A DNA stretch of 56,444 bases, the filler included, from Dimargaris cristalligena (taxonomy: Eukaryota): NCBI GenBank assembly GCA_003614675.1. It is 4 parts of 4 records of this genome, joined end to end, with 100 filler letters (N's around TTAATTAATTAA, not from the genome) between each part and the next. Parts side by side here need not be neighbours in the genome. Positions count along the whole stretch, not along the records: positions 42,497 to 56,444 come from ML002971.1; 3 more parts are not named here. One strand, given 5' to 3'. Under the pieces are notes generated by a model, which worked only from the letters and a program-made list of their open reading frames with translations, had not been told where the DNA came from and made no database searches. Below are positions 13,789 to 56,444 of this stretch, piece by piece. The position numbers and the translations under genes were made by a program. How positions within the stretch are numbered: position 1 is the stretch's first letter; every line of letters starts with the position of its first letter.

Positions 13789-14092
13789 TGTATAACGAAA
13801 AATCCATTTGATGAGGCAAGTAAAGTACTACTGGCTGAAAATAAACATCCCACCAATTCTCCCATATACATATTGGTTAAAACCTTATACAACTAAGTGG
13901 AACTTCACCCATATCGTTTCGGGTTTATATTATATTCGATAGAATCTGGGATATGGGAGAAGTTTATCCAAGTTGTATAACGAAAAATCCATTAGATTCG
14001 GCCAATATTACTAGTTAAAAATACATTTCCCATCTATTTTCCCATACACGTATAATGTAAACCCTTATATAGCTGGGCCGAATTTCACCCAT
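13789..14092. repeat. Diverged tandem duplication, period ~180-185 bp
   Basis: TGTATAACGAAAAATCCATT at 13789 and 13974; TTCACCCAT ending at 13912 and 14092; runs into the gap. Confidence 0.8.
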
Positions 14093-14192
14093 NNNNNNNN
14101 NNNNNNNNNNNNNNNNNNNNNNNNNNNNNNNNNNNNTTAATTAATTAANNNNNNNNNNNNNNNNNNNNNNNNNNNNNNNNNNNNNNNNNNNN
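14093..14192. other. Artificial contig spacer
   Basis: 44 N + TTAATTAATTAA (stops in all six frames) + 44 N. Confidence 0.97.
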
Positions 14193-28250: not shown

Positions 28251-28350
28251 NNNNNNNNNNNNNNNNNNNNNNNNNNNNNNNNNNNNNNNNNNNNTTAATT
28301 AATTAANNNNNNNNNNNNNNNNNNNNNNNNNNNNNNNNNNNNNNNNNNNN
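28251..28350. other. Artificial contig spacer
   Basis: 44 N + TTAATTAATTAA + 44 N. Confidence 0.97.
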
Positions 28351-32100: not shown

Positions 32101-33347
32101 GGTTTATGATCCCTGGCCTAGCTCTGTCTTTTTTTGCATTGTCGATTTACATTTCTTTGGCGTGTTTATCCCACTCCAACAGGTCGACATGAAGCTGGCG
32201 TTGATGCATAGCGCTTTTGTATTCACATACCCTTTCTTTAGAGGACGGGTGCGGCTGGCTGTCGGGCGGGGGAATTTCTAGAGGAATACTAAACTTCAGT
32301 AGGGGGATTCTTTGCAGGTAAGTGGTAGCATACGGGGAGCTCAATGGATTCCCTTTTTTAGGCAATGGTAAGGATCGTCCGATAATGACCCGTCATCAAC
32401 CACTTTTTACCAGGGGGAAGGCGGTCTTTCCTTTATAATTCATAAAATGCCCAATTCCTACGATGGGTTAGGGTAGTGTATCCTACTCTAGCTCTTGGTT
32501 TCCCTACTATTCTTGCACTGGGCCTCAATACATCTCCCGCAACTGTGTTTTTTATCCGAATCCGCCATTGTACATGGGCCACTCCCATGTGGGAAACGTT
32601 GGACATCCCTTTATAAGGAAACATTTGTTTTGGGAGGCCGGACTTTCCAACTGAAACCTGGTATCGTTCTGTGTCTTCCATTTATATTTCTCTTTCAACT
32701 ACATACAGTCGCAACGAATCTTTCTCCTTCGGGTGTAGGTCGGATGGTGCCATTTCTTTTTTGTTTCTTCATTCACGATTGTCACTATCAAACCAGTTAT
32801 CCGGGGGGAGGGGATCCAACATCGTATTACCCAATAACTTTCCCTAGTACAAACTAAAAGCAATTCAACAAAGGGTAATTATTATCTATTCATCAATGTT
32901 TCTGGGTCCCTGTGGTAGAGCAGTCTCCGCACACCAATTAGACGCACACCTCCCTAATAGCGGGCCGCTAATCCCCACCAGACAACCGGCTCTTTGCACC
33001 GAACTCCAAATTTTATCATACCTACTTGACTGTATAGCATGTTATTATATATAAGCTACCACCGCCCTCTACCTACTACCAACCGATCCTATGGGTATTT
33101 CGATGCTTGTGCTTGTAGTAATATATATATCTTACCGCCCTAACCTCCCATTTAGGCTAAACAAGCCTCCATAGTTGTACACATCATTTCGGAGTATTAT
33201 TTTCCCCTGCATCACCCACTCGCCATCCATTTACTGTTCATTAGTCTACCACACTTCTAGGGTACATATCCAACCTATTTTCATTTTTTATTCCCTATTT
33301 AATTTACACTTCCTCGGCTAGGCGAATTTTCTTAGCCACTCGTGAAC

Positions 33348-35302
33348 ATGTCTAGGCTCTACGTTTCTCTTTCGGGTATCTCATACCTAGCCTCATATTC
33401 AACCACCATGCATACTGATTCCGCCTTGGCCCAGTTCTTATGGGGCACCGCCCGTTCCACCGGATATGCCCGCGCTTCTTTTCTTGTGGCAGTCACCTCT
33501 CTCGTTGTTTTGGTGGTTTGGCTTGTTCGACGGTTCACTAATGAGCCCACTTCCGTCCACCACCCCTTTCACCATGCTCCACACCAGGGAGTCAGCCTAT
33601 TTCACCACCCCCAGCCCGTTCGAGTCACTACCACTGCCACCATCACCACCACCACCGATCCATTGTCGATCCTACCCAAAGTTGATCTTTTGGCCCCATC
33701 TTCGGCCCCCGTTGAAAGTCCCCTGATGTCGACGGATAAAGTAAACCTGATTGATCTGATGAACGTTGCCTGTCCGGCCCTAACGCACCCCGACAAGGCC
33801 GTGTTCAAACCGTCCAAGTGGCTATTCAATGGGCATTTACAGACCGCAGCGATGACCAAAATGGACAGTATCAAGGGCTATGAGGTGGATTATTCACGGT
33901 AAGTAAGCGACAGCCTCGCCAAGCCTCTAATTAACCCTACCAGCGGGCAAAGGCCCGCGGACTCTGAATTTTTGTATTGTTTCTTTCTTGTTTTCTCATT
34001 TGGGGCGAGTAACAAACACCCCGGAAAATCCTAGTGGGCTGGGATGGTCACCGCCCCCTTGCCCGTACTCTTTCACACACACACACATACACATACACTC
34101 GTCCACAGTGCTCCCAGTCCAGTCTAAACTTAGCTAAATAGGAATGCCCGGCAAAGTCCAATGATATTAAAGCTTCACCATGACTAATAACGGCATTGCT
34201 GGTAATTTCTGTTCAAAACGTGTAATATATCCGAATTGGATACCCCTGTCTCTCGGATGTTGGATTGGCATCCACTATTCATCGTCCACACCTTCCCCAT
34301 GCATCCAACCAACCGACCAACTTACTTAATCGTCCCAATACCAGTGAAATCGTCGCGTTGCCCGATGGTGGCACAATCGCCCTAGACTGGTTCCCTTCCC
34401 TCGAAGTCAACCCGGATCCGAACTTGCCCATCATTTTTATTATGCATGGTCTCACCGGCGGTAGCCATGAATTCTATGTGCGTTCGTTTGTCAAGACCAT
34501 CACCGACACCCGCCACGGGTGCCGAGTGATCGTTCTCAACAACCGCGGTTGCGGGTTCTCCGAGATTGTTACTCCGAAGCTCTACAGTGCCGGCCACACC
34601 GACGACCTCCGGTTTGTGCTCCAGCGGGTACGGGACCAATTCCCCCTCACTACCCCTTTGATTGGGGTGGGTTTCTCGCTCGGGTCCAACATTCTGGTCA
34701 AGTTCGCGGGGGAAGAGGGCGACCGCTGCGTGCTCAAAGCAGCGGTTTCCGTTTCCAATCCCTTTAACGTATTAAAGACCTCCGAGCTCCTCCACGCCGG
34801 ATTCTGGAGTTCGCGGACCTACGCCCGGGTCATGCGGAACGAAATCATCGGCCTCTTTAACCGCCATCGCCATATGTTCAAGGACCCCGAGTCCGATGCT
34901 ACTATTGATTTCGATTTCGATCCGGATTCGGTAGCGCGGTGTAAAAACGTCCGGGAGTTTGACGACTTGTTCACCCGGCGCATGTTCGGTTACGCGTCCG
35001 TCCAGGATTATTACCGTAGTGCCGGGTGTGCGCCATATGTAGGCCGTGTGCGCATTCCGCTCTTGTGTGTGCATAGTTTGGACGACCCCGTGTGTTTGGC
35101 CCAGTCCATTCCCCTGCAGGCCATTCGAAATAACCCCTACGTCGTGCTGGCCACGACCGCAGCCGGGGGCCATCTCGGGTGGTTGGCGGCGGGGTCCGGG
35201 GGGCATCGCGTGCGCCCGTGGCTGGTCGATCCGGTATCCGAATTTTGTATGGCCATGGCCCAAGTGGAAGCAGTCGACTCGCCTGAGACATGTCTACTTT
35301 AG
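33348..35302 (+). CDS. Alpha/beta hydrolase of the ABHD1/2/3-Eht1/Eeb1-YheT family (acyltransferase/esterase), copy 1
   Basis: Exon 1 ends at 33898 and exon 2 is 34345-35302 (phase-2 GT-AG intron). Motifs: LFNGHLQT, LPDGGTIALDW, HGLTGGSHE, NNRGC, nucleophile GFSLG, DDP, GGHLGW; N-terminal hydrophobic helix. Alternative start at ATG 33408. Confidence 0.92.
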
Positions 35303-38638: not shown

Positions 38639-39073
38639 ACTAGGCTGGAAATACCTGTGATAGTACTCTATTATATATCTGCCTCTCGCTATATATATAA
38701 AGCCACCCCCAACCCCACGGCAATGGCCCTTGTTTCCTGCATTACACTCCCTATTCTTGTTTATAAATGTAACTGCACTTATTAACTTTGGACTTTCGGC
38801 CCCCGTCATCCCCCACTGCCTCTTCTATATAAGAGCTCCCTCCTATTCGGTTGTTTCACTTGTGGTCCGTTACCAGCCCTCTCGCTCTCTTTATATCCCA
38901 AGCAGCGCCCACCCGCCGTATATCCTATACAAGGAGGGATTTTTATATTTGCCTTTTTATAAAAAACTCCTTATATCTAGGATATATAATATATATACTC
39001 TCTCTAAATATCCGTCGATTGTCCAAGCACCGCACTTCGTTTTTTATTCCTATTTTTCTCGGTCGCGGTAGAT

Positions 39074-41346
39074 ATGTTGTCCAACTCTAACCTCAGCCCA
39101 CTCTTTACCACCACCACTCCTTCTACCCCCGTCGTCGACGCATTCCCCCTCGCTACCGCCCAGTTCGATTCAGCCCTAGCCCAATTCTTATGGGGCACCA
39201 CCCGTTCCACCGAGTACGCCCGTGCTTCTATACTGGTCCTTGCCGTTTTTCTGGTTGTTTTCATGGTTTGGCTAGTTAAGCGTTTCGCCCATGGGTCGGC
39301 TGCCCCTTCGCACCATCCTCACCACCACCACCACCACCACCGTTATTTTCACCATTCCTCAAATTATGGAGTCAATTTACTTCACCACCCCCAAACCGTC
39401 CGGATCTCTACTACAGTGGCCCTGCCTTTGGAGAAGTCGGCCGCCGTTCAGTCGGTGGGCCCTTCTTCGGTGACCGCTGTTACTACTCCCACTGTTTTGG
39501 CCCCTACCGCTGTGACCACCACTACTACTGCTACTACTACCCCTGTTACCAACCCCGGGGATTCGGGTCATTCGGCCCACCTTTCCTCCGTACCCTCCGC
39601 CAATACCAACCGGGACCTGTCGTTGGAGTTATCCAAAATCAATGTGCCGACCCCGGCAATGACTCCCCATAACGGTTCCGCCGCCTCGCTAGTTCCACCA
39701 CCAGCATCATCATCATCATCATCATCACCAAGGGCGTCGTCCGAGGAAATGGGCTTAATGGACCTACTGTATTCTACCTGTCCCGCCTTGACCGACCCCG
39801 ACAAGGCTGTGTTCAAGCCGTCCAAGTGGCTATTCAATGGCCACTTGCAAACCGCGGCGGTGACCAAAATGGAGATTCTCAAGGGCTACGATGTCGATTA
39901 CTCTCGGTAAGTTATATTAGGGTCTAATGTGCAGTGTGCGTTGGGGGGAAAATATTTAAGCGTGCTTATCAATATAGGTGGGGAAGGGGAGGGGGGGTAC
40001 TGTGGACAATTTTAGGCGTGGTATTAATAGTAAGGTGGTCTATATCTCCTTGCAATGTGAATGGAGTAACAAACCCAGACCCTGGGAAGTCCCACTAAAC
40101 GATCCTCGGAACCACCCCGAAAAGTCCCCACAGTGCCCCCGAATATAGTGAAAACCTTATGGGTTAGGAATCCCTGATGAAGTACGGCGCTTGACCGTTT
40201 TAATCCTCGACCTTACACTAATATATATATTTCCTTGTAATCAATGTATTCCGTATTGTGTAACCAACGTCGATTTGACCACTTGGCATTTACCTTGTTT
40301 TGATCGTCGCCCGCCATTCACCATACATCATTTATCAACCAACCAACCAACCCGTTAACCACCACCACCACAGTGAAACCGTTTCCCTACCTGACGGCGG
40401 AACCGTTGCGCTGGACTGGTTCCCTTCCCTGGAAGTCAACCCCGACCCCAACCTGCCCATTATCTTTATTCTCCACGGCCTCACCGGCGGCAGCCACGAG
40501 TTTTATGTGCGTTCGCTGGTCAAGACCATCACCGACGCCCGCCACGGGTGCCGAGTGATTGTGCTGAATAACCGCGGCTGCGGGTTCTCCGAGATCCTTA
40601 CCCCTAAACTGTACAGCGCCGGCTACACCGACGACCTGCGGTTCGTTCTGCAGCGGCTACGGAACCAATTCCCCCGCACCACCCCCATCATCGGGGTGGG
40701 GTTTTCGCTCGGCTCCAACATTCTGGTCAAGTTCGTGGGGGAAGAGGGTGACCGTTGCGTGCTCAAAGCCGCCGTGTCCGTAGGCAACCCGTTCAATCTC
40801 CTCAAAGCTTCCGAGGTACTCAACGACGGTTTCTGGGGTTCCCTCGTCTACACCCGGGTCATGAAGAACCAACTCCTCCGCTTCTTTAACCGCCATAAAC
40901 ATATGTTCGTCGAATCCGATTTCGACCTCGATTTGGCTTCCGTCGCTAAAAGTAAAACCGTCCGTGATTTCGATGACCTAGTCACCCGGCGGGTGTTCGG
41001 TTACGCGACCGTCCAGGATTATTACACTAGTGCTAGCTCCGGCCCGTATGTACCCCGCGTCCGTATCCCCCTGCTGTGCCTCAATAGTTTGGACGACCCT
41101 GTATGTTCAGCCCAGTCCATTCCGTACCGCGCTATTCGGGAGAACCCTTACACCGTGTTGGCTACCACCGCCTCCGGCGGTCATCTCGGTTGGTTCGAAG
41201 CCGGGTCCGACGGGAATCGCGTGCGCCCCTGGTCGATTGACCCCATATCCGAATTCTGTATGGCCATGACCCGCGTCGATACCGTATACTCACCTGTGGC
41301 TCCCCCTACTAACACCACCACCACCGCCGCCGTTGCTGCGTCGTAG
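39074..41346 (+). CDS. Alpha/beta hydrolase of the ABHD1/2/3-Eht1/Eeb1-YheT family, copy 2
   Basis: Exon 1 is 39074-39906 and exon 2 is 40374-41346. Same intron position and phase and same catalytic motifs (GFSLG, DDP, GGHLGW) as copy 1; longer His/Thr/Ser-rich linker. Confidence 0.92.
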
Positions 41347-42396: not shown

Positions 42397-42496
42397 NNNN
42401 NNNNNNNNNNNNNNNNNNNNNNNNNNNNNNNNNNNNNNNNTTAATTAATTAANNNNNNNNNNNNNNNNNNNNNNNNNNNNNNNNNNNNNNNNNNNN
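42397..42496. other. Artificial contig spacer
   Basis: 44 N + TTAATTAATTAA + 44 N. Confidence 0.97.
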
Positions 42497-42621
42497 TCGG
42501 TTAGTCTTGACATCCCCCCCTAACACTAGTAGCCCGCTTGGCCGTGTCCAACGCCCCGCCTACTGTTAGAAGCCTATCCCCGAGACTCTTGACGGACTAA
42601 GAGTGGTTAACCCGGGCGACA
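42497..42621 (+). mobile_element. LTR, 3' portion (copy 1, CpG-intact), truncated by the contig edge
   Basis: Aligns to the last ~125 bp of copies 2-4 and ends in GGGCGACA. Confidence 0.85.
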
Positions 42622-43073
42622 GATGGTACTATTAGATCATAAAAGATAGGAGATCAACTATTTATGCAAGTCAGAATGCCTCTAATGGACAGTTCATTGT
42701 TCATCAATGTCTAGAGTAAATGCACAGGAGGGCTCTGGTTATCTCAGCCCTCAACCCCATCACCTATAGGCATGAATTCCAATTTATCTATAATTCTAGA
42801 GACAGTACCAGCTGTGGCAGTAGAAGTAACAGTTTGACAAATTTCTGTATAGACTGATATTAAAGGCTAGCTGGTCTGATTATTATTTACTTCAATTGTT
42901 TTATATCTAAACCAAGAGATACATATTATTTACTTGTCTATTTAGGGATGCACATCATTTCGATTCACTACAATTCACACATCAGCCATTAGGCCTAATG
43001 CTGCTGCAGTCACCATCTTATTAAGGATTAAGGGGTAAAGTTAAAGAATTATCTGATGGAAGGTGGTGGAGTG

Positions 43074-43655
43074 TATTAGCCCTCCTAATCCGACTTTATC
43101 TAGCCTTAATGCTTGTCCACACTTATTAGGCCTGGTAGTGCCATATTAACCCTCCCATGGTCACACCTGGTACTATGGGACCATCATTTATTATATAACC
43201 ATTCTCCTTCCAGACCCCAGTGCTTCACACGAATCACTCAACCTACTGATCCAAAGACTCTTCCAGTTCCCATGAGAGTCTTCTGGATATGAGGCCTGCC
43301 CAGTTGTCTATTTATCTATACTGTAGTCCAGTAGTATCTCCTCTTGGGGCCTCCCTCTGGAGCTGCCCCCATATATATATAACTGGCCCCCACTGGGACC
43401 AGTTAGATTCCTTAGCTTATTCTTACTCCCTAGTTTACCCCAATAAACTCTATATATGCTCACCCCTTTATACTGACCCAAAAGTGTGCCTGCTACATGT
43501 CCCTTACATAAAATCATTGCCTAGGCCTTTATTTGGTTAGTACTATGCCCCATCCTAACACTAGTAGCCCACTTGGCTGAGTCTAAACCCCACCTACCAT
43601 TAGAAGCCTATCCCCGAGACTCTTAATGGACTAAGAGTGGTTAACTTGGGCAACA
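43074..43655 (+). mobile_element. Solo LTR (copy 2) with 5-bp TSD GAGTG
   Basis: GAGTG at 43069-43073 and 43656-43660. Internal TATA-like tract and AATAAA; ends in GGGCAACA; colinear with copies 3 and 4. Confidence 0.88.
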
Positions 43656-46600
43656 GAGTGGGTTATCAGCATTGTATATGGAGTGGAACTAGAAAAATGG
43701 ATTCATTATTATGGATAGTATACATATGAATAACTATGGAAAGAGTATGTAACAATATGTGATCAGATGAACAGAGAATTTACTGGGTCATGGTATATGG
43801 GGCTAGGTCATTACTATACATTATTGGCCATTAAGTAGGATAAGTCATTAATATCACAACATGGAAAAAAATAGGGAATATGAGAAGAGCAGTACAATCC
43901 AAACTTTTATCTTCACAATGCCAAATAGAATGAATGGTAATAGACCATTTGAATAGGGACCACAGTTTTCGTGTACTTCCTTATTGGTCTTGCAGACTCT
44001 GGATTTAATCCATCCAGCAAGCACAACACTGCTAAATGGAATTATTCATAGTAGGTCCAACTAGACATACGCGGTATCTAGTATCCTAATTTAGGGACAA
44101 ATGGTCTAACATTGGAATCCCATTATTCATAGTGGCTGTTCATTATTTCTTCCATTCAAATTCCTTCGCTCCAATCTGCGTACAAGTAAAATATCATAGG
44201 GTCATTTATTTAGGAATATGGAATATCTTCCCTTCAAACTGTGCTAAGTATACCATACCAGGTGAAACAGTGACAAGGGGAATAGACTGCGAAGTGGTTC
44301 ATTAGGGGGTTTATACTTCACTTCGTAATTTGGGAATGCAATTTCATTAATGAAGATGTCCAACAATTGGCTCACTTAGGGTGAAGCCGTAATTCCGACT
44401 GAAGATAGGCTTGGTTACGATGTTGGGGGACTCCTGGGATAATTGTTCGCTTTGTATAGTATTTACTGTTTCTATTTGACAACGCTACACCTGTCCATCG
44501 GATGTGGACAGCCTCTCTTTGTACTCTTCAAAGACCATGTATAGGAGCCACAATGTCGCCCTTCAACATACTATTACCTGGTAATATACAGGCGTAGTTG
44601 CCAGGAACTTTTCGATTCTCTTTACCGCCTATAAATACTCCGGGCTGTCTCATGTTAATTTTAATCATCATCAACACCGATTACTATCTGAGATTTCAAT
44701 TTTCAATCCTTGATTTTTCCTATACTCAACTCCACCCACACGCTCCGGCATTTAACCTACTTCTACCGCCACCGCATCAACAAAGATAGCCTTGACGATG
44801 GCACCAACCAGCACATATAACATCCGTCTCCAAAGAAAGATTCTGGACCACTCGGGGAGCCTTGGCCGCGACTACGTGACCGTCGACCCAAAAGCCAAGT
44901 AATATAAACTTGTAGCGTGATGATTCTCTATTCGTATTTAGGAGAAATCACTGCTTGCCCTTCGGTCGGATTACAAACAACTGAACCCCGCAGCTATTGT
45001 GGTGAGATGGGCACGGCCTTAGAATATTAAGGAAACATTGTGGGCTTTTTGAGCTTGGCACATTACAGCTTAACTTCGGGACATCATCAAAAGCCCAACG
45101 GTACTCATGATTTTTCTCTGTTACGACATTAGCTCCCGGCCTTTAGCTACCTAGTGTACCTCGCCCACAGGCTCGCTGATTACCCCAGGCCCCACCAATT
45201 TCACCTGCTGGCCGAAACTAGACGATAACGATAATATTGTTACCAAGATGTTTTAAAACCAGTAGCATTGGTACCCCTTGGCATTAAAATATAGCCCTTC
45301 TTAATAAATATTATTATTCCCGAGTATTCCCCAATCATTAAAGACTGCAGGCCTTTTACATTTAATACTATTTCAAACACTTAGCGCGAATATCTATCGA
45401 ATTTATATCACATTACATAGTATAGAGTTAGGAGAAACTTCATTTTGGTCGACTTTACCAACTACGACCATTTCCGAAATAACAATGCTCCACTGTAATT
45501 TCCCTTAATTTTACTGATGTTTTTATCAGTTCATAAATCTGTTTGGTTGAAGGGGCCACCTCTCCCCGAAGATGAGATATATTTATTATTTATGCCATAT
45601 CTATCTCCTATTATATTTTTATTTAAGCCTCACTGATCTACCTCGGAATAATAGCATCGAGAGGCATTGTGGTTCTTGTAGGAATTAGGCTATCGTTTTT
45701 TTTTTTCAAGAAAAATATATGTGCAATAAACATACTATAGACCCAATCCCAGCGGTGGTCCTATTCAATACATCTCGAATCAAGGAGTTGCTGTATTTGG
45801 TAACGAGATTTACGTTCATTCTGAATATGTACATAGTTCACTTACGAAAACCTGACCGGTGGTGATATGATCAATAATGTAATATTTATAAACACATTGA
45901 CTGCCCTATCCATAGTACCAACCGCCTATTAACTGGCCCATCCATTGTGTTATTTAGGGCACTAGAGAACGTACCCGTCACCACCCCTAGGCCATCGCTT
46001 CGAGGGTGAAATGGCACCAGTAGTGCATCGTTCCATCGTTCGCATAATCTATTGAATCATGCAGTATCACATATGATATGGTATTGTGGAGGTCCAGCCT
46101 GCAAGCTACTCGCCACCATTAAAACCCAATAGGCTGGTGTTGCTGGAAGCCCTTAAAACACTTTTCCATCCCTGGCTATTTGATGTTTACCACGGTTAGC
46201 CAGCAAATCAACGCCCTGGCCTATATTAGATACCAGCCCACTCGCATATGAATGTGGCCAGCCCCAGCAAAGCACATGGGGGATTCAAATGAATAATTAT
46301 TACGGTTGGGGGGGGGGCGGACCTAGAACTGTGTTCTCACGAACAAGAAATTATATTGTTCAGTCTGTGGTGGATCTACGGCAGTGTGGACCCTTATCTA
46401 CCCCCCAGGGTCGTTTTGATTGTATAGCATCCCTAAAGACTCACTGGGTCTGGTCGGGAATAAGGAAAGGGAATGATGGTCTGATTAAGTTGATGGATAA
46501 CCAACGGCTAGTCGTGTGACCACCCGGCCATTATGGTCGCGCAGTAACAATAATAATCGGGATCGTGGGTCAATATATCCCAATACACGGGTATATCCCC

Positions 46601-46697
46601 TTTCTAGGGTACTATTATATAAATGAATGTAGTGTAGAGGATAGTAGCGGAGATCACAACTCCTCATACAAGGGAAACTATCCCCTTCCCATACCAA

Positions 46698-46729
46698 AAT
46701 CACGTGATTAAGAAATAAAGTCACGTGAT
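46698..46729. promoter_or_regulatory. Tandem E-box palindromes (AATCACGTGATT and GTCACGTGAT)
   Basis: Two TCACGTGA cores 21 bp apart, ~730 bp upstream of the eIF4B ATG; matches the known bHLH (Cbf1/SREBP-type) motif. Confidence 0.45.
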
Positions 46730-47453
46730 AAAATTTTTATGGTGTAGCCGAAAAGGCTACGATGGTAGAGAGTAGGAGGCAGAGGGGGGGTGGTAACACA
46801 CCATTGGAATTGAAACAATGGAAAAAAACGGACAGGTCTCACTATGGCAGCAAGGCAGAACCCCTTCGGGGGTGAACAAAGGACCAGGGGATATTCCGGG
46901 ATAGACCAGAAACGAGAAGCAGCAAGGCCTGCAAATAGACGATAGTTCGGAACCAGAAGAAACACCGTATAAGTTAGTCTTATATAGGCATATAATCAGC
47001 GATGGATCCTCCAGTGTTGCATCGAACTGGTCAGGTCGGTGGATGACACACTTATCAGTGAATAAATGGGGCAATGGCGGGCGAAGAAAATGAGGCCTCT
47101 TAGTTAAGCGCAGGATGTGGTTCATTGACCCAGTTGTGTTGTAGCCGCACGGAAAAGCCATCCAGGTCCGTGGTTTATTCCCAGTAGTTCTATGCCCGAC
47201 ACACTCGCTGCACCCAGTTCCTGTACTGTATGGGTGGACTTTAAGACACACCACTTCCCCCGCCCTCTCTTTTCTCCCTCTCTCTCTCTCTCTTTCCTTC
47301 TAACCACCCCCGCTATTCCACGAATATATAGATTCTCTACCCGTCTATAACCGTCTATCGGCCCGATCTCCCTTACCTCATTCAAGGCAGATCCCACCCC
47401 TTTTTTTAAAAGTTCTTCATTCTCTCCGCCCGAAAAAAGCACCCATCTCCAAC

Positions 47454-49477
47454 ATGGCTAAGCAATCCAAGAAGAAGGGGAACACCATGTCCCTGACCGA
47501 CTTTCTGAACGATACCGCCACCGGCTCCTGGGCCGAGGACACGTCCGAACTGCCCAGTGCCCCGGCCGCTTCGCTGCCCACCCGTCCCGGTGACACTGGT
47601 CGTGGCTTCGGCTCCACCTACCAGCGCCCGACGGCTGGGTCCGGTGGTAGCTATGCCAGCAACCTGTCGTCCTATACTCGGCTCGCCCCTGCCGAACCCA
47701 GAGACTTGCCCACCAGTCCTCCCTACACCGCCTACGTGGGCAACCTCCCCTTTGATATCACTGAGGACTACCTCGGTGAATTCTTCGCCCCCTGCCAGGT
47801 AAGTCTTAGTTTTGTCTTATTGGTTCATAGACATATATATATATAGATCTATATATGCGTGTTTTTAGCATTTTACCCGAGAACCTGGGTGTGTTGGTCG
47901 AAAAAGCCCAAGAAACCGGCTGGTTTTTAGTGGGTACTAGTAATTCTGCCTCGAACTACACCTATTCCGTAGTTTCCCCAAATCCGCCCCTTGGTTCATT
48001 ATTCAGTTCAATGAATCTAGGATACCTTCAGGGTTTATTAAGATATAGTATACCCGACCCAATATTGAGGGTCAATATATGCTATTCATGGTTTCCAAGT
48101 GAATAATCATATTAGGTTTAGGGCGGATGGGGCAAGCCTATGATGCCTTTCCAACTAAGCAGCGACTAACACAGTATAGGACCTGTTTCATATTATCCAC
48201 CCACTACTCCCTCCCGTGACCCCCACCAGATTACCCATATCCGCATGGTGCGTGACCGAATGACCGACCGCCCCAAGGGCTTCTGCTACGTTGAATTTGA
48301 CAATGTCGAGTCCCTAGTCAAGGCCTTGGAACTCCACGGCGAAGTAAGTCCTTCGGGCATTATCCAGCTTACTATTCATACTTCGATTACGACATGCCTT
48401 TAACTCGACCTAAGTTATCGACTTTTATAAGATGCGAGCCCGGTCCTTGGTATGAACCAAACCACCCGTCTAATCTCTACCCCGGGTATTTTACACTATG
48501 CATACCCACTACACCTTTATTGTAGCAAATCAACGGCCGGTCTTTGCGCATTAGCATAGCTGATCCTCGTAAGTACCTCTTGACATGCCAAATTGATATC
48601 TGCACAGGTCGATACGATCTGAATCCCTCCTCCTCTTTTCAATTCCCTTTGTCCGCCTGTAATCCGCACCGCCGATTTACGCCTTTTGTGGATTAACCAA
48701 AGGTCAAAGACAACCAAGTGCCTCCTCTAACCACCCATTTCCCCATACTTTCTTTTATTGGCTACCCTCCTTGTGAAATTTACCCCACCCCCACCAGCCA
48801 AGGAAGGCTTCAATCAAAATCGCTCCGGCCACGGCTTCGACGAAGATCGCAGTGAGGGTGTCAGCAACTGGCGTCGGGAAGGCCCCCTCACCTCGCGGGT
48901 ACCTTATGAGGAGAACTCCCCCGCCGCGGGCAGCTCCAACTGGCGCGCCCACGATGCCCCGGCCCCCCAGTCGAGCTTCCGTGATCGGGCTGGTCCCGGT
49001 GGTGCTGGCCCGTACCCTCGCCATGGTGGAAATCGCTTCGGTGACCGGCCTATGGCCCCCAGTATTTCGGACGAAGCCGGCAACTGGCGTGAAAACCGGG
49101 TGACCCCTCCCTCGTTCCAATCTACCGCTCCCTCCCGCGCCCCGTCCAGTGGTAGCACCTGGGGCCCGTCCTCTAGCTCCCCCAGCCGTGGTGGCGAACC
49201 CCATGGGGCGTCGAACGCGAGTGCTGCTCCTATTACCCGTAAGAGGTTGCAGTTGGCCCCCCGGTCCGCCAACGAAACCAGCTCCTCCTCCCCTGCTGGC
49301 CCCGCCAGCACTCGCCCCAAATCCAATCCCTTCGGTAACGCTAAGCCCCGTGACGAATTGGAAATGCAGCGTCGTGTCGAAGAGCGTCGTCGTGAACGGG
49401 CCAACAGCAATGCGAGCAAGACTAGTGCGGCTGATGATGCTGCTTCCGCCACCTCGGCCAACCCGACGCAAGCTTAA
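47454..49477 (+). CDS. TIF3: Eukaryotic translation initiation factor 4B (RRM protein)
   Basis: Exons 47454-47798, 48230-48343, 48526-48568 and 48798-49477 join in frame. Motifs: MSLTDFL..SWAED, RNP2 PPYTAYVGNLPFD, RNP1 KGFCYVEF, NWR repeats, RKRLQLAPRS, KSNPFGNAKPRD. Confidence 0.9.
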
Positions 49478-51080
49478 TCCGCCAACTGCGTGCATCTCTC
49501 CTTCCCCTCTCTCTCTCTCTGTATCCTCATCCCTTTTTGTTGTTCTTTTTCCGGTTCAGTAGCGCCCCGGGGTTTGTCACTATAATGGTCGATTTTTTCA
49601 GCATCTGTCTCCTCTTCCTGTTCGTTCGTTAAGTGTTTATCCCTGGTTTGTTTAGGGCCTTTTCTGTACTGGGTGAGTATATATACATGGAATTGATATA
49701 TCATTGACTATTGTGAGACCCTCGACTATACCATTGCTGCATTATTCTTGCTTCCACCATCGCCCTTTCCATAGGGAAAACGGAGTCCCACTGACCGTGT
49801 CTGGCACTATCTGACCTTTATTGTTTGCTGACCCCTCCCCGCTATTTCCTCCCTCCAAAATGTTAGGCCCGGCATTCGATACTCTCCGCCTTTCTATCTT
49901 CCTCTCTTTCTGTGTGTGTGTCTTTAGTTTTATTTCCACTTGTTTTAGTTTAACGACCGACGCGTGGCGACTGGCTAGGGGGTTTAATTATTCACACTGT
50001 ACCTCTTCGTTACAACGGACCACCTCGTTTCTTCTTGATTTCTAAATTCTATATATATTTATGTGTCTTACCGCGGGAATTCCATAGTTCACCAGGCTCT
50101 CACCCACACCCTAACATACCGGCGTACGTGTATATATGTGTGGGTGTGTGTCCCCCATCTGCTCCAACACTTCCTCAAACGCTCCTTCTCTCATTTTCCC
50201 CTCCCAGTCATCTGTATATAGATTTAGATCTGCATTTATATTACTCCCCCCCTCCCCTTTACCAATCCATGTGGCCTCCTTGAATATGGGCCCATGGCCT
50301 AGGTAAAGTGCCCAAAAGTTGTGTCCCCCTTCCTTCGCCTCCACCCTCTCGTTTTTCTGTTTTTATATCTAGCCTTTATTCCAATCTTCTCTTTTATACT
50401 CTTACGGTTCTAATCGCCGTACACCTGGACCTTACTAGGTTTAATATCACTTTATCATTGTCACTCAGCAATATATTATATATTTTCCTATCCCCCAATG
50501 AAGCCGAAAAAAATGATCTAGTAGCGGTGCATCCCTCTCTCTATATATTGTGCATTCGCTCCGGGAATTGGCGACCTTCTACAGTGCGCTCATTAGTCAC
50601 TCCTTTCCAATTATTTTTTCTACCCACCCTATTTCGATTGATTATTTTGATTAGGAGAGCTTCGCACTAAAAATATTTTTACTGTGTAATGATTTCTCGA
50701 TAACTATACCTTTTTTATTTGGTCATATGACATCATCTGTTCCCATACCCCTGGGGACAAGCTATCATTGCTATTGTACTTAAGTTTATTGTGGACTGTG
50801 TGACTCATCAGTCTCTATAATTATTCATTAAAAAGAAATTCACATCCATTTATCCCAAACTAATAAATAACTTTTAAACACAATACAGCCATTTCCTAAT
50901 TTGGAGAGCTTTACATTTAATAACAAGGTCTGGTCACTATATACAGGTATAATTGAACCCAGCTGTTTGGGAAAAAATATGTAAGTCTTAATGTAATGTG
51001 TAGAAATAAAGAGGGGAACCTAGTTAAAGAGTTGATTTAGTGTCTTACTAAATCCCATTAACTTTAATCACAGAAGATAC

Positions 51081-51667
51081 TGCCTGCCCTTCTAATCCAC
51101 CTTAGTCCAGACACCAGGCTGTCTGCCCTTATTAGGCCTTATAGTACCACATTAACCTTCCCATGGTCACCCCTGGTACTATGGGATCACCCTATATCAT
51201 ATAACCTTCCCCTTCTGGACTCCAGCTCTTCATACTAATCACTCAGTATGCTGATCTGAGGACTCTTCCAGTTACCCTAAGAGTCTTCTGGATACTAGTA
51301 GCTATCTAGTTGGCTTATTCTCACTATATACCTCAGTTACCTGCAGTCTTCCCTTGGGACCTCCCTCTAGAGTTGTCTCTGTATATATATATAACTGGGC
51401 CCTATTGGGACCAGTTAGTTTCCTTAGCTTATTTCTTACCCCCTAGTTTACTCCAATAAACCTTATATATGTTCACCCCCTCATACTGACCCATAAGTGC
51501 ACCTATTACATGTCCCTTATATAACTAATTACCTAAGCCTTTATTAGTTAGTACTGTGCCCTGTACCTAATACTAGTAGCCTGCTTAGCTGAGTCTAAGC
51601 CCTGCCTACTGTTAGAAGCCTATCCCTGGGACTCCTGATGGACTAAGAGTGGTTAACTTAGGCAACA
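51081..51667 (+). mobile_element. Solo LTR (copy 3) with 5-bp TSD GATAC
   Basis: Begins with TG and ends with CA; GATAC at 51076-51080 and 51668-51672; colinear with copies 2 and 4. Confidence 0.9.
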
Positions 51668-53847
51668 GATACTAATTATGCAGGGAGACATCTGACTTAA
51701 TACATGTAGTAAAGATTGTCCTATTTGGTGTAATATAACTTGGTTAAATCATATAAGCCCTGTTCTAATATACTGTTTTTGCATCCCTCATCCATTCCAG
51801 TCCTCCACATTTTACCCTAAATATTAACCATTCAATATAAACCAGGACATGTTTAATAATCAATGAGATTAAAGCCAACTGGTCTTTGGGGACTAGACGC
51901 CATCATTGCCTAGTTCCACCAACGAGGCGCAAGAATTCGGCCTTGCTGAAGAATCACCTTCCTTCAGCCATTCCCGCCAATTGATTCATCTAATCTATAT
52001 ATCATATTCATTTTACCCGTCAATTATTATCCACCATTTCTTATATCATCATTTAGTAGGGTCTTTCAGCATGTTCTATGCCGGTTCGATACCTTTATCA
52101 CTGGTTTGCTCAGTTATAAAATGCCGAACCAATTTCTATAGTTATTACTTGAGTCATTAGTTGCACCCCATACCCCTCTTTACTAGTCAACTCACCCCTA
52201 TACTGATATCCGTCATTATTGCTATCTACAAAGCACCTTTCGTAGTTTTACTCTGAGCGCCTTCCTGATAACCTTTCCACCTAGGCGCAGGTACTATAGC
52301 TAATACTAGTATTTTCCCCTACGACAGTAGAGTTTGCGTTCTCCCATATAGCCACTCTCCTCCACTCATGGATACTTATCCTACCCAAGGTATTGCCCTA
52401 TCGCTTGGTACGGCCCATCCCTCTGCCTCCGCCCCTACCTCCCCCATACCTTATTAAACTTATTGGTAAATTACCGCCACGTGCAAGACCGACTGTTATT
52501 GGGAGACATCCTACCCACAAACGCCCCACCGGCAATTCAATTTAGCCGACTCTTTCTCTCCAATTTGCACAAGTTCCACAACAACCCATATCGTCCAAAG
52601 GGTGAATTGGAGCGAGCATGGCCTCGTGGCCGCCGTACTCCCCGCTCTAGTTGGCCCCAATAACTTGGTCGTAGATCCCGTTTGTTAAGTTATCAAATCG
52701 ATCTCCGGAGCAATTTCATTGGTGTATTTGCACCATAGACTATAGAACAGGGGGGGGGGTGCCGAAATGGAGCCAAGGTAAGGGGGTATGGAGCCGCCCC
52801 CGTGGCTGATCCCTCCGTTGCTTTATGGCCATTGGAATGGCCCGAACCTGATTTAGATGTATCAAAGAGTTCGGAGGTTGTGATACACCAATACAATGGT
52901 AATTGAGTGTTGGGTGTGGGAGAGGGGGGCTATACCATGTTTTACGTGTGAGACTGTAAATCAACAATGCCAGAGTAACCGTAATAAAGAGAAGGGGCCA
53001 CCTCCGCTAACCACAAAGTTTGAGACTGGGGTGGGCGCTGGAGGTACTTCATTGTAGCAATATGTTCCCTTGACGTCTTTTGGGAGTCACTTTTTAGGGG
53101 CTGGATGGCTGTTTAATATTAACGATGGACTTCTGCAATGTATTGGCAAATTGACAGGTAAACACCTGGCTTCCAGCTAATCCAACCCCCCCACCCTCAT
53201 CCACGTCCAGCTTTCCCGATATTTCGAACTGACAGTACTCCACATTGAAACCAGACCATTGTGTGCCAAGAACAAGCTAGAGACGCGAAGAATCCCCAAA
53301 TAGATACCCCATCCTAACAATTTAATTACACTTCTCCCGCTTTCCAACCCACGTTTACCATCTGGTCTCCCTCGCCTTTCCTAATCAAAAAAAGTCAAAA
53401 ATAAATTAAAAAAATGCTTCCGCGTGCCACTAGGTGTGGTTCATTTCAAGGGACCCAATGTCAATGGCATTCGGAACAATGGCTTGTATAGTGCTAGGGC
53501 TGTCCGTAAATCTACCCGATTCGCTGTTTACTGTATATATTAAAAATGGTCGCCGGTATGGTTTTTGACGCCCCTGCGATTTTTCACCATACCTTCGGCT
53601 CGGAAGTTCGAACAAAGCACCATGTGCCTATCAAATCAGGTCGTTGACCGCAAAGCAGGGTACAGGAGCCCGGCTCTTACAGTCTATACTATACCCCCTG
53701 CTGGGCAAACCCTGTCGGACCATGGTGCTTTGGAGATGACCTTACTCTTTGCGCGCTGGATGGTGGGGGATAGTGACTGGTGGAAAAAAGGGGATCATAT
53801 TGATGGGCTCTTGTTACTCTCCACCAAAATACATCCCTAAATTCCAG

Positions 53848-53855
53848 TATAAATA
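53848..53855 (+). promoter_or_regulatory. Candidate TATA box of the small secreted protein gene
   Basis: TATAAATA ~200 bp upstream of ATG 54049, followed by a C/T-rich leader. Confidence 0.45.
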
Positions 53856-54048
53856 TCGGAGTACTTCGCCTCTCTTCATATCTTGTCCACATTTTACCCA
53901 TCTTCTCACTGCCTACACGCCCTTTTCCAATCCTCCTTGCACATTTGCCCGCCAACACCACTGTTCGACCCGTTTTGGAACAAATTTTGCATTTTACACC
54001 CCCATTTTTATTTCTCCACTCACCCGATTCACCACCACCACCAATACC

Positions 54049-54408
54049 ATGCTTATTACCAACGCCTATACCTCCACTCTGTTTGCTCTGATTGCTGCCA
54101 CCCTCACCATCAGCAGCGCCTCGGTGCCTCTTCTTGACTCCGTCCCCCCCTATTCCCCCGCTTTGGCGCATCTTCACCGGCGCACACCTATAATTCGCCA
54201 GATGAGCCAAGCCTTGTCCCAAACTGGAAGTGGTCTTCTGCGAACTTCGACGTCAGGCATGGGCAAGGCGGGTTCCAATAAAACCGCCAAAACCGTTATT
54301 AACACTACCAACAATGGCAATACCCTTTACAATAAAATACCCCAAGAGTCTAACAATAAGCCACCGAAGGTAAGGCCCGTACCCAGTATCCCCGATCATT
54401 TAAAGTAG
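54049..54408 (+). CDS. Small secreted protein (119 aa) of unknown function
   Basis: ACCATG start context, signal-peptide-like MLITNAYTSTLFALIAATLTISSA, Kex2-like LHRR site and a basic Ser/Thr/Asn-rich mature part. A possible donor GTAAGG at 54370 could change the C-terminus. Confidence 0.6.
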   Translation: MLITNAYTSTLFALIAATLTISSASVPLLDSVPPYSPALAHLHRRTPIIRQMSQALSQTGSGLLRTSTSGMGKAGSNKTAKTVINTTNNGNTLYNKIPQESNNKPPKVRPVPSIPDHLK

Positions 54409-55630
54409 AACAAGACTTGCCAAGTCCTTCTCCTCCTCCTCCCTCCCCATGGAAATTTGGGGGTGCATGGGGGATAAGCACTCAACCACTATACAGTATT
54501 TTATGCCTGTTTGGCCAAACCACCTGCTGGATAACACTGAGGCCAGATTGTTAAGGAATTCCGGTTTAGGCCTTTGCCAGTATCTTGGGTTATCCCTTAA
54601 AATATTCGCATTCACTCCAAATATATATATATAAACTCATTGTTTCTAGCAGATCACATTCCTTTTATTTTACAAGCATTATAAATAAACTATATATTCT
54701 ACTATCCGGTTTTTTTGGCTAGGATTTCAGAGTAAGCAGTTGGTAAACTCATTTAACTGAGGGAAGAGAATCCAATTTATCATTTTTTATTTTCCCACTG
54801 GGGGGGGGGGTTTATTGGCAGCATGAGTCAACCATAGACTGTAGGGGGGAAGATAAAAATAGACAGAGATTTTGATAAATGTGGCTCGCCCTGGCTGGAG
54901 TCAACCATTGAAAATCACTAACACCAAAGTGATCTCAACTACACCCTGTGGCTTCTATTAGCATTGAATATTGCCCAAATAAGCATGCCTGTTCTGCTTC
55001 AGGATAATTGTAATAGTTGGTGATATTGGAATGGCCAGCCACTCAAATGCAACCCAGAGGCTGTTGAGTAGATACTAAACCAAGCTGTGCCAAATTTTTC
55101 ATTCAGGTGTCCTATGGAAGGAGGGGGGGGTAGCATGGTTTATAGGGATACTGGAGTAGAGGGAACTGAAGTAATCGAAAGGGGTTGGATGTAGATGGGG
55201 TATGTGCATAAATATTCAATAATTGGAAGGGTTATTTGAGAAGGATATTCATATGGGAGGGGCTGGATGACCCAAAGGGCTACCCAAGTAGGAGGGCCAC
55301 TAATCAAACATTAGCTACTCAATGGGACATTGGAGAATCAAACCACTGGTGCCAACCCTGGTTGTGGGTATCTTCAGGGCATAGTCATACAGTCAATTAC
55401 CATGCCCCCCCCAAGGGTTTTTCTTATAAATCTGGGACACCAGCATCATCAGTGAGATTGCCCCCCTCTCCATTTGACCCTCCCAGTTGTTTATTTTGAA
55501 TCAGTACAACCCTCCAAGATTGTGGTAATATTAGACCAGCTAGAACCTAACATGTATATTAAATTGGGCAGCCTATCTCTAGGACTTTTAATTATACCCC
55601 AAGTCCCATTTTCCTTCATAAATCAGGTAA

Positions 55631-56213
55631 TATCAGGTCACCTAATCTACCCTAATCCAGACACATTGGTGTCCATCCCTATTAGGCTTTATAGTACCAC
55701 ATTAACCTCCCCATGGTCACCCCCAGTACTATAGGATCATCCTGTATTATATAACCATTCCCCTTCCAGACTCTGACTTTGCATTAATCACTCAAGTGCT
55801 GATCCAAAGACTCTTCCAGTTACTATCTGAGTCTTCCAGGTCCTAACAGCCATCTGGTTAGCCTATTTTACCATACCTTAGTCTTAGTAGGATCCTTCCC
55901 CCAGGGCCTCCCTCTGGAGTTGTCCCCATATATGTATAACTGGGCCCCAGTGGGACTGATTAGATTCTTCAACTTATTCTTACCCCCTGGTTAAACCCTA
56001 ATAAACCCTATATATGCCCACTACCCTTGTATCAACAAGTAAGTGTGCTTACTACATATCCCTTACCTGCACCTACATGTGTAGCCTTTATTAGTTAGTA
56101 CCATATCTATACCTAACACTAGTAACCCACTTGGCTGAGTCTAAGCCCTATCTATCATTAAAAACCTATCCTTAGGACTCTTGATAGGCTAAGAGTGGTT
56201 AACCTGGGTGACA
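55631..56213 (+). mobile_element. LTR (copy 4), probably solo; TSD degraded
   Basis: Colinear with copies 2 and 3; ends in GGGTGACA; flanks GGTAA / GGGGA match only partly. Confidence 0.85.
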
Positions 56214-56254
56214 GGGGAATCTCCTATTTTTTATTAAAATACTTATCAGCTATT

Positions 56255-56444
56255 TGTCGCCCCTCCTAATCCGTCCTAATCCAACCGATATGACCACTGT
56301 CATATCAGGCCGTATAGCACCATATTGTACCCCCTTCCCCTAACCAGGCCGAACATCATTGATAGCCCCTTAACCGGCCAGGCCTCCCGGAGTTCGCACT
56401 AATCACTCGTAGGTGATCTTAGTGCCTTCCAATTCCCGTGAATA
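56255..56444 (+). mobile_element. LTR, 5' portion of a diverged, CpG-intact subfamily (copy 5), cut by the window end
   Basis: Starts TGTCGCCCCTCCTAATCC; its first 8 nt are the reverse complement of the GGGCGACA end of copy 1. Shares AATCACTC..GATC..CTTCCA blocks with copies 2-4. Confidence 0.75.

Follow-up and report, generated by a model that had tools for sequence, protein, structure and literature searches.

CpG-centred decay of an LTR family and its flanking DNA in Dimargaris cristalligena, probably through cytosine methylation

Transposon decay with a CpG signature has been described in Microbotryum, Puccinia and Melampsora, where it accompanies Masc2/DNMT1-type enzymes (Amselem et al., 2015; PMC4352252; this and the other PMC-numbered articles are cited from the portions available to us). 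Among early-diverging fungi, the transposable elements of Phycomyces blakesleeanus carry 5-methylcytosine (5mC) at CG and CHH sites, with the highest levels in LTR elements, and 5mC is confined to repeats in both Phycomyces and Linderina pennispora (PMC11258239). For Dimargaritales, we found no report of methylation-type transposon decay in the open-access literature.

The window, meaning the whole stretch of 56,444 nucleotides analysed here (filler included), consists of four contigs joined by N-linkers. It comes from Dimargaris cristalligena, an early-diverging, mould-parasitic fungus of the Dimargaritales (Zoopagomycota). The whole finding is confined to one contig (G000:C764, window 42497-56444), and its features are collected in Table 1.

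Table 1. Features of the studied contig, with CpG counts observed and expected.
Feature	Position	Strand	Length	CpG	Remarks
N-linker	42397..42496				Artificial, between contigs
Copy 1	42497..42621	+	125 bp	9	Young LTR 3' end, truncated by contig start; terminus GGGCGACA
DNA separating copies 1 and 2	42622..43072			1 vs 15.1 expected	Eroded
Copy 2	43074..43655	+		3 vs 27.0 expected	Old solo LTR; 5-bp target duplication GAGTG
Copy 2 3' flank	43656..43965			0 vs 7.9	Eroded
eIF4B-like host gene	47455..49478	+		Retained	Introns present; internal control
Copy 3 5' flank	50700..51080			0 vs 9.6	Eroded; single-copy
Copy 3	51081..51667	+		0 vs 25.9 expected	Old solo LTR; 5-bp target duplication GATAC
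Copy 3 3' flank	51668..51895			0 vs 6.4	Eroded
Relic 5' of copy 4	54890..55629			1 vs 34.9	Low-copy repeat, CpG-free but for this one
Copy 4	55631..56213	+		0 vs 24.2 expected	Old solo LTR; target duplication imperfect (3/5 letters)
Copy 5	56255..56444	+	190 bp	10	Young-subfamily LTR 5' end (TGTCGCCC...), truncated by contig end

All five copies represent ends of a single LTR family, probably of Ty3/Gypsy type, that numbers hundreds of copies. Young LTRs have TG..CA termini with short inverted ends (TGTCGCCC / GGGCGACA), of which the old termini are decayed versions, and 5-bp target duplications accompany copies 2 and 3 as well as several further copies judged by eye. The Ty3/Gypsy assignment, for which the order RT-RNaseH-integrase puts integrase last, fits locus L163, where an integrase ORF (Integrase_H2C2 + rve) abuts the 3' LTR, running into a purine tract and then directly into TGTCGCCCC; no RT was noted on this contig. 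This order was seen in 1 of 30 integrase loci; at two others (L150 and L160), the family copy appears inserted rather than joined through the purine tract. By eye only, no shared sequence that could serve as a candidate primer-binding site was seen after 30 young 3' ends. Young copies are 88-98% alike, and the young pieces are located at contig ends. Copy 5 comes from a younger subfamily, only ~62% identical to the old copies over the 5' part, and hence is not their ancestor. It falls just beyond the range covered by the first-pass annotation of this DNA.

For the wider family, we fetched at least 90 LTR-centred loci among the matches listed, 40 evenly stepped stretches and 30 of the 67 integrase matches. 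The family pieces numbered 101, of which 47 were not "old" (CpG O/E of at least 0.2) and 54 were; leaving out 10 old pieces shorter than 500 bp gave a set of 44. As these searches are biased toward the query, the old/young bimodality is not a census of copy age.

The first-pass annotation had counted 9 CpG in 125 bp for copy 1, 3 for copy 2, none for copies 3 and 4 and about 10 in 190 bp for copy 5, and our recount reproduced these figures. Taking 0.75 x expected as the background level, the deficits have Poisson probabilities of 3e-6 (copy 2), 4e-9 (copy 3) and 1e-8 (copy 4). Unique DNA on the contig is not depleted (intergenic O/E 0.70-0.78; 0.87 in the rest of the window). Genes keep their CpG, as the annotation had also said: O/E is 0.78 in the first and 0.95 in the last exon of the eIF4B-like gene (PF06273 match with E=4e-6, under the curated cut-off). 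When 365,700 bases sampled in even steps from 40 contigs were divided into 616 bins (585 bp each), only 20 held three CpG or fewer; 6/7 family pieces in this sample were CpG-free.

In the alignment, CG becomes TG, CA or TA, again as first described. Over 35 former CpG columns in 44 old copies (from the matches listed), we counted 583 TG, 565 CA, 286 TA and 35 CG, so that 35/1469 sites remain and the loss is 97.6%. The erased columns include all four 5' neighbours, and no TpCpG preference was evident by inspection. Both strands are hit alike, with no per-copy TG/CA polarity in old copies (chi2 46, df 43, P=0.35). In 59 young pieces, likewise from the matches listed, C>T stands at 9.4% per C at CpG (72/766 and 65/690), against 0.2-2.9% at CC/CT. 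Both outcomes that the first-pass annotation had named as refuting it, a lack of transition enrichment at CpG and equal CpG depletion in unique intergenic DNA, are therefore absent. Each piece carries 0-6 such changes, and we found no over-dispersion among young pieces (P=0.075, 0.86). Intermediate stages also exist, including LTR copies at O/E 0.27 and 0.44, and the 30 integrase loci (of 67 matches) spread from 0.03 to 0.89. The hazard per C is about 1.9 at CpG vs 0.24 at CpA, and the relative rates are about 30:4:1 for CpG, CpA and CpC/CpT. Between old and young sets, which were both picked by likeness to a CpG-rich or CpG-poor query, the CpG hazard differs ~18-fold and private transversions ~8-fold. 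Decay is gradual and age-dependent, but the old/young ratio is about two-fold away from what a strict clock would give.

The CpA component had been overlooked by the first-pass annotation and is present in two families. CpA>TpA reaches 267/1242 (21.5%) in old copies vs 169/2609 and 158/2756 (about 6%; P=2e-13), and in the second family 134/1092 vs 27/942 and 31/900. TA occupies 19.5% of former CpG sites, near the ordinary CpA rate, which matches the prediction of sequential hits; it is above the 16.2% predicted at constant rate (P=0.001). Per-copy CpA loss correlates with private transversions (rho 0.40, P=0.008) and is over-dispersed among copies (P=1e-5), while a +2 preference within CpA (CAG vs CAH) was inconsistent across the two families.

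The first C of CCG had also been proposed as a target, from CCCGGG reading CTTGGG or CTTAGG. These letters are real, but there is no context effect: C>T at this position amounts to 67/1323 (5.1%) vs 6.6-7.1% at CC/CT (P=0.64), and to 1/72 in the second family. Since 13/16 young 3' ends caught by the motif census read CTCGGG, the simplest account of the T is inheritance from a variant source element.

Erosion had been placed within the copies, but the depletion is wider and includes their flanks. Around 58 old copies (110 flanks, excluding three mixed elements and duplicate loci), O/E is 0.09 at 0-50 bp, 0.29 at 300-400 and 0.68 at 800-1000, while around 59 young pieces (61 flanks) it begins at 0.48. 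CpG erosion thus extends 0.5-0.8 kb beyond the LTRs, sparing genes. The eroded 5' flank of copy 3 matches only itself in a sequence search, and the 320 bp preceding it hold 12 CpG vs 10.6 expected. The 3' flank of copy 2 is the beginning of a 1.4-kb low-copy segment whose paralogues retain CpG at this part. In the window, where the LTR is at its left end, the O/E along this segment runs 0.20/0.69/0.96; in the paralogue L178, which has an LTR at the right end instead, it runs 0.39/0.30/0.18. Two paralogues in which no family copy was found show 0.66/0.47/0.89 and 0.61/0.52/0.84. L178 retains 2/20 shared CpGs vs 7/14 in L177 (P=0.017). Older repeat relics could account for part of the gradient, as young flanks are already reduced (0.46-0.5) and the DNA preceding copy 4 is a low-copy repeat in its own right, with three paralogues (67-79%) of which two or more adjoin or overlap LTR-family copies. 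The label "repeat-specific" is too narrow given the eroded single-copy flank, and too wide given that low-copy duplicates away from LTRs keep their CpG.

Copy 3 was also recovered in a sequencing run from a second study (X5), whose contigs agree with the flanks but for 16 differences over about 11.4 kb, although this run may not be independent. Twelve of the 16 fall no more than 800 bp from an LTR edge, a zone holding 28% of bases (P=1e-4). Lower constraint on spacer DNA confounds this skew, and the contexts are few (CA 4, CC 3, CT 3, CG 2, transversions 4). No empty-site allele of the LTR insertions was found in three sequencing runs.

Of the methyltransferases named in the first-pass annotation (DNMT1, DIM-2, DNMT5 and RID), the PF00145 search brought up DNMT1, on contig G000:C729. 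It has RFD/RFTS (PF12047), BAH (PF01426) and methylase (PF00145) domains, and its PC and ENV motifs are intact. It groups with Dimargaritales orthologues at 100/99 and with zygomycete DNMT1s, separate from ascomycete sequences. The gene is cut by the contig end near residue 1432 of 1864 (D. verticillata orthologue numbering) and the remaining C-terminal part was not found in the assembly, which leaves the gene only putatively intact. Both candidates from the PF00145 search (2/2) are accounted for by this DNMT1 and a DNMT2-like gene, and neither PF00145 nor the full DNMT1 query retrieved RID/Masc1 in this incomplete assembly. For TDG/Mug T:G repair, no match was found (TIGR00584, 0 candidates), but these searches are insensitive. 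They also brought up no clear host UNG, Nth1 or Ogg1, so TDG or MBD4 may still be encoded. The one match to PF03167 is a divergent ORF resembling UNG, located on a contig of 2 kb. PF00730 gave three kinds of match, one of them unclear; from reading their translations, we take the other two to be MutY-like and Mag1/AlkA-like.

We consider deamination of methylated CpG, on the LTR repeats and neighbouring DNA and most likely via the host DNMT1, to be the probable explanation. The host would methylate CpG across LTRs and roughly 0.5-0.8 kb of adjoining DNA, most likely by DNMT1. Because 5mC deaminates to T on either strand, each CpG would become TpG or CpA, at a steady rate, until the supply is exhausted. 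Weaker methylation (or mutability) of CpA would then turn CA/TG into TA, giving CG>TA double hits. We infer the presence of 5mC, DNMT1 as its writer, CpA as a methylation target and poor T:G repair that raises the rate. The CpA part would be unexpected from DNMT1 alone, since Amselem et al. saw only CpG signatures in Masc2/DNMT1-only genomes, as far as the available portion of their paper goes.

An enzyme-driven mutator seems unlikely, but has several points in its favour. On this reading, DNMT1 or a partner deaminase would itself make the C>T changes in silenced repeats while the fungus grows vegetatively, more at CpG than at CpA. By simple arithmetic, CpG C>T per C is ~60-90 (young) to ~150 (old) times the private transversion rate, and the mammalian ratio is lower than this. 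Two families show the CpA excess robustly, no RID was found, and Zymoseptoria tritici offers an example of mitotic CA>TA change driven by an enzyme of the DNMT1 superfamily (PMC8016269). However, the Z. tritici process spares CGs, the main target in Dimargaris, and unrepaired T:G mismatches would also give a high rate. We think it rather improbable, too, that Zoopagomycota harbour a RID-free, DNMT1-only repeat mutator, in which a single DNMT1-class enzyme would target LTRs de novo, spread over ~0.5-0.8 kb and raise C>T at both CpG and CpA well beyond the rate of spontaneous deamination. If true, this defence would resemble RIP without depending on meiosis, and would serve as a living model for the condition ancestral to RID and DIM-2.

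True RIP, a homology-triggered premeiotic C>T burst by RID/Masc1 that in this lineage would prefer CpG, appears very unlikely. RIP places many mutations in a copy in one pass, often strand-polarised, and acts on any duplication that is sizeable and about 80% identical. Here, the closely similar young copies carry few changes, evenly distributed and without bursts, and strand polarity per copy is absent. Tandem hydrolase paralogues 6 kb apart, 68% alike overall and 84% across their best 400 bp, retain CpG at O/E 1.17. The main target is not CpA (or CpT), and PF00145 yielded no RID. The annotation's phrase "RIP-like system" goes further than the data show, while its distinction between CpG-centred decay on repeats and the CpA-first RIP of Neurospora stands. 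A survey of 1,239 genomes, in the part available, found strong repeat-directed signatures in four ascomycete classes only (PMC12543289). What speaks for RIP is the CpA>TpA excess and flank leakage, the same CpG-then-CpA order in Tuber melanosporum, a species with both RID and Dim2 (PMC4352252, Table 2), a RIP index signal reported with caveats for another zoopagomycete (PMC11105155), and the incompleteness of the assembly, from which RID could be missing.

Hardly tenable is a composition or assembly artefact (a CpG-poor source element for the old subfamily, or LTR insertion into CpG-poor DNA): old and young pieces are indeed different subfamilies, and young pieces sit at contig ends with mildly CpG-poor flanks, but the 35 columns are divided between TG and CA inside the old subfamily alone and therefore require an ancestral CG, which refutes this reading for the LTR bodies, while the reciprocal paralogues lose CpG at the LTR-near end only and the second-study contigs reproduce the flanks.

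If methylation is the cause, as the mutational pattern suggests, Dimargaritales would be a further lineage with methylation-type transposon decay. The 30:4:1 context hierarchy and the 0.5-0.8 kb halo make a measurable prediction for a methylome. The CpA tier is of consequence since many take CpA>TpA in repeats as proof of RIP and RID, and a CpA signature with no RID found would depart from a published association. If a DNMT1-only fungus makes this tier, RIP indices can be misleading in fungi outside Dikarya, and a route from maintenance methylation to RIP becomes testable.

Compared with known systems, Dimargaris shares with Neurospora RIP (RID-dependent, premeiotic, CpA>TpA) the C>T changes in repeats, a CpA>TpA component and spill into flanks, but its CpG changes far exceed CpA, its decay is gradual and without per-copy polarity, no RID was found and host duplicates are spared. 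Like the Z. tritici Dim2-dependent mitotic mutator, it combines CpA>TpA in repeats with a DNMT1-superfamily enzyme, although that mutator acts in methylated repeats and spares CG (PMC8016269), and the Dimargaris enzyme clusters with zygomycete DNMT1s, away from the ascomycete sequences. Tuber melanosporum decay is likewise predominantly CpG and secondarily CpA (PMC4352252, Table 2), but Tuber has RID/Masc1 and Dim2, where our PF00145 search of Dimargaris found one DNMT1-class and one DNMT2-like gene. Phycomyces and Linderina are also early-diverging, and their 5mC sits on repeats, CG first and LTR elements most; their methylomes are measured, whereas Dimargaris is known from its mutational scar alone, and Phycomyces has DIM2 besides (PMC11258239). 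This repeat-confined 5mC weakens the annotation's view that such a pattern is notable in an early-diverging fungus. The closest likeness in kind is to Microbotryum, Puccinia and Melampsora, with CpG-centred C>T in transposons, a DNMT1 that carries both RFD and BAH domains, RID not found and 5mC deamination as the explanation; unlike these, which show CpG only in the available account, Dimargaris is a zoopagomycete with near-total loss, no evident TpCpG preference and a second tier at CpA.

Searching with copy 2 brought up 986 candidates, 40 of which were scored. Full copies of the family are ~580 bp long, begin with TG, end with CA and are flanked by 5-bp target duplications; in locus L163 an integrase ORF runs continuously through a purine tract into a young 5' LTR end. 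The family is therefore an LTR, present mostly as solo copies and probably of Ty3/Gypsy type; no primer-binding site was seen for it. Its young subfamily (88-98% alike, CpG observed/expected (O/E) 0.5-1.1) lies nearly always at contig ends, while old copies average 79% alike with O/E mostly below 0.13; the two diverge most in their 5' halves.

The first-pass annotation had claimed repeat-targeted CpG erosion in the window, and its counts are right (see table). Copies 2-4 would each be expected to hold 24-27 CpG (P 1e-6 to 1e-9 against local background). As it also noted, genes stay CpG-rich (exons on the same contig, O/E 0.78-0.95). Unique DNA is not equally depleted (spacer of that contig, 0.70-0.78). 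Two tandem hydrolase paralogues, sited in another part of the window and taken as a control, kept their CpG (O/E 1.17). Across an even sample of the genome (assembly of 2220 contigs, 30.65 Mb in all), 20 of 616 bins are equally CpG-poor. The linkers between the four ~14 kb contigs are not biology. Many fetched loci carry repeats similar in size to the window's AT-rich one, with partial CpG loss, possibly a different repeat.

Features of the window and of loci fetched from the same genome (window positions unless a locus is named)
Feature	Position	Description
Contig G000:C764	42497-56444	carries the whole finding
Copy 1	42497-42621	fragment cut at contig end; 9 CpG
Copy 2	43074-43655	old solo LTR; 3 CpG
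Copy 3	51081-51667	old solo LTR; 0 CpG
Copy 4	55631-56213	old solo LTR; 0 CpG
Copy 5	56255-56444	fragment cut at contig end; 10 CpG
Linkers	14093-14192, 28251-28350, 42397-42496	identical, 100 bases: N44, 12-base stop-in-all-frames palindrome, N44
AT-rich dispersed repeat	151-690, 13770-14092	short (~150-180 bp); inverted and tandem copies
Alpha/beta-hydrolase paralogues	33336-35302, 39008-41346	tandem; DNA 68% alike over 1.6 kb
Low-copy repeat	51848-52322	non-coding; 68-72% to L082, L104, L125
222-aa frame	53740-54408	signal-peptide-like hydrophobic stretch; just beyond eroded zone of copy 4; no Pfam match
Split LTR	L009, 906-1495	old, CpG-free; CpG-rich insertion (19 CpG in ~400 bp)
Inverted duplicate	L132, 170-485 and 1785-2098	316 bp, 99.4% identity; 10/10 CpG kept in each arm
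UNG-like ORF	L141 (G000:C2211), 1-621	only UDG-family match; divergent; 2-kb, AT-rich contig

We took a column pair as ancestral CpG where some copies read TG and others CA, a rule that makes no use of the young subfamily; 44 old full-length copies hold 35 such pairs (TG 583, CA 565, TA 286, CG 35). Outside these columns, C>T reached 21.5% at CpA (267/1242) vs 6.5% at CpC and 5.7% at CpT (P=2.5e-13; site medians 20%, 3% and 2.5%), and a second, unrelated retroelement family gave 12.3% at CpA vs 2.9% and 3.4%. Since TA at former CpG (19.5%) is close to the CpA rate, the double hits are most simply sequential, CG>TG/CA and then CpA>TpA. A constant-rate model predicts 16.2% TA; the excess (P=0.001) suggests that most CpGs were lost early. 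The first-pass annotation's remark on the first C of CCG points to no context effect: C>T there is 5.1%, with no rise (P=0.64), and CTCGGG is already present in 13 of the 16 young 3' ends that a motif census picked up, so a source variant most simply explains the changes.

The tempo is gradual. In young pieces CpG C>T stands at 72/766 (5', n=30) and 65/690 (3', n=29), with 0-6 hits apiece and no over-dispersion (P=0.075 and 0.86); CpA C>T is 17/476 and 7/469. In old copies, no bias of individual copies towards TG or CA is seen (P=0.35). Intermediate LTRs occur (O/E 0.27 and 0.44), and 30 integrase loci range from 0.03 to 0.89. Per-copy CpA loss increases with private transversions (rho 0.40) and is over-dispersed (P=1e-5). 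Because the old/young ratio is ~18 for CpG hazard vs ~8 for private transversions, the mutation clock is only approximate; the old and the young set are both query-biased. The insertion splitting the L009 LTR has a paralogue with 0 CpG, adjoining an LTR in L011, which suggests that erosion depends on time since arrival.

CpG loss also forms a halo. Old-copy flanks have O/E 0.09 at 0-50 bp, 0.29 at 300-400 bp and 0.68 at 800-1000 bp, climbing from 0.04 to 0.74 once recognisable other repeats are masked; young-copy flanks already start at 0.46-0.48. Part of the eroded flanking DNA consists of old repeats, so repeat nests add to this gradient. The 381 bp 5' of copy 3, single-copy by search, hold 0 CpG vs 9.6 expected. 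A low-copy segment adjoining copy 2, with the LTR at left, has O/E by thirds of 0.20/0.69/0.96, and its paralogue in L178, with the LTR at right, 0.39/0.30/0.18; paralogues in two loci where no family copy was found run at roughly 0.5-0.9 throughout. CpG loss is predicted by nearness to an old LTR, not by duplication as such. Three loci retain CpG in the low-copy repeat found at 51848-52322; the L104 copy, situated at ~0.3-0.8 kb from an old LTR within a larger CpG-free island, lacks it altogether.

The suggested methyltransferase homologue search, made with PF00145 and a DNMT1 query, yielded DNMT1 and no RID/Masc1. Both PF00145 candidates were placed: DNMT1 (L063, G000:C729) and a second gene that we take, by its motifs, to be DNMT2-like. 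DNMT1 has RFD, BAH and methylase domains with PC and ENV motifs intact; it is closest to Dimargaris, Tieghemiomyces and Dispira proteins (49-52% over the searched region) and groups with them in a 27-row tree (support 100/99), which makes the host of these repeats a member of Dimargaritales (Zoopagomycota). The gene runs off its contig within the catalytic domain and its remainder was not found, so the assembly in which no RID/Masc1 appeared has holes. TDG/Mug gave no match; because the same searches also failed to bring up a clear host version of other glycosylases that should be present, this is only a lead. The UNG-like ORF of L141 may be viral or foreign.

The observed anatomy, spectrum, tempo and halo are probably best read as methylation followed by decay; we infer both the presence of 5mC and the role of DNMT1. 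LTRs and ~0.5-0.8 kb of flank would carry CpG methylation written by DNMT1, with CpA methylated more weakly, and steady deamination would erode methylated sites at, by arithmetic, ~30:4:1 for CpG:CpA:CpC/T. An enzyme-driven mitotic mutator predicts the same sequence pattern, and we consider it unlikely. Classical RIP is more doubtful still, as it fits neither the context nor the lack of bursts and of polarity. An artefact, which fails on the TG/CA split, is hardly credible.

Methylation-type transposon decay is well supported here as a real example, in a lineage (Dimargaritales) for which we found no report of repeat CpG decay in the mostly open-access literature covered. Passages of PMC12543289 credit only four ascomycete classes with strong repeat-directed signatures, and a Dimargaris is among the genomes in its table; part of PMC11105155 gives a high RIP index for Z. 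radicans, with caveats. According to sections of PMC11258239, 5mC lies almost only in repeats in Phycomyces, likewise in Linderina pennispora, and TEs have raised CG and CHH. A portion of PMC8016269 describes mitotic CA>TA change that depends on Dim2, with CG spared. Excerpts of PMC13297926, PMC7862722, PMC9866270 and bioRxiv 2023.01.30.526367 serve as background only. In the relevant passages of PMC4352252, three basidiomycetes with only Masc2-type Dnmt1 show CpG-only signatures, RID/Masc1 is present in every genome with CpA or CpT signatures, and Tuber shows CpG, then CpA. The single point here that might surprise a specialist is the CpA tier in a genome where no RID was detected.
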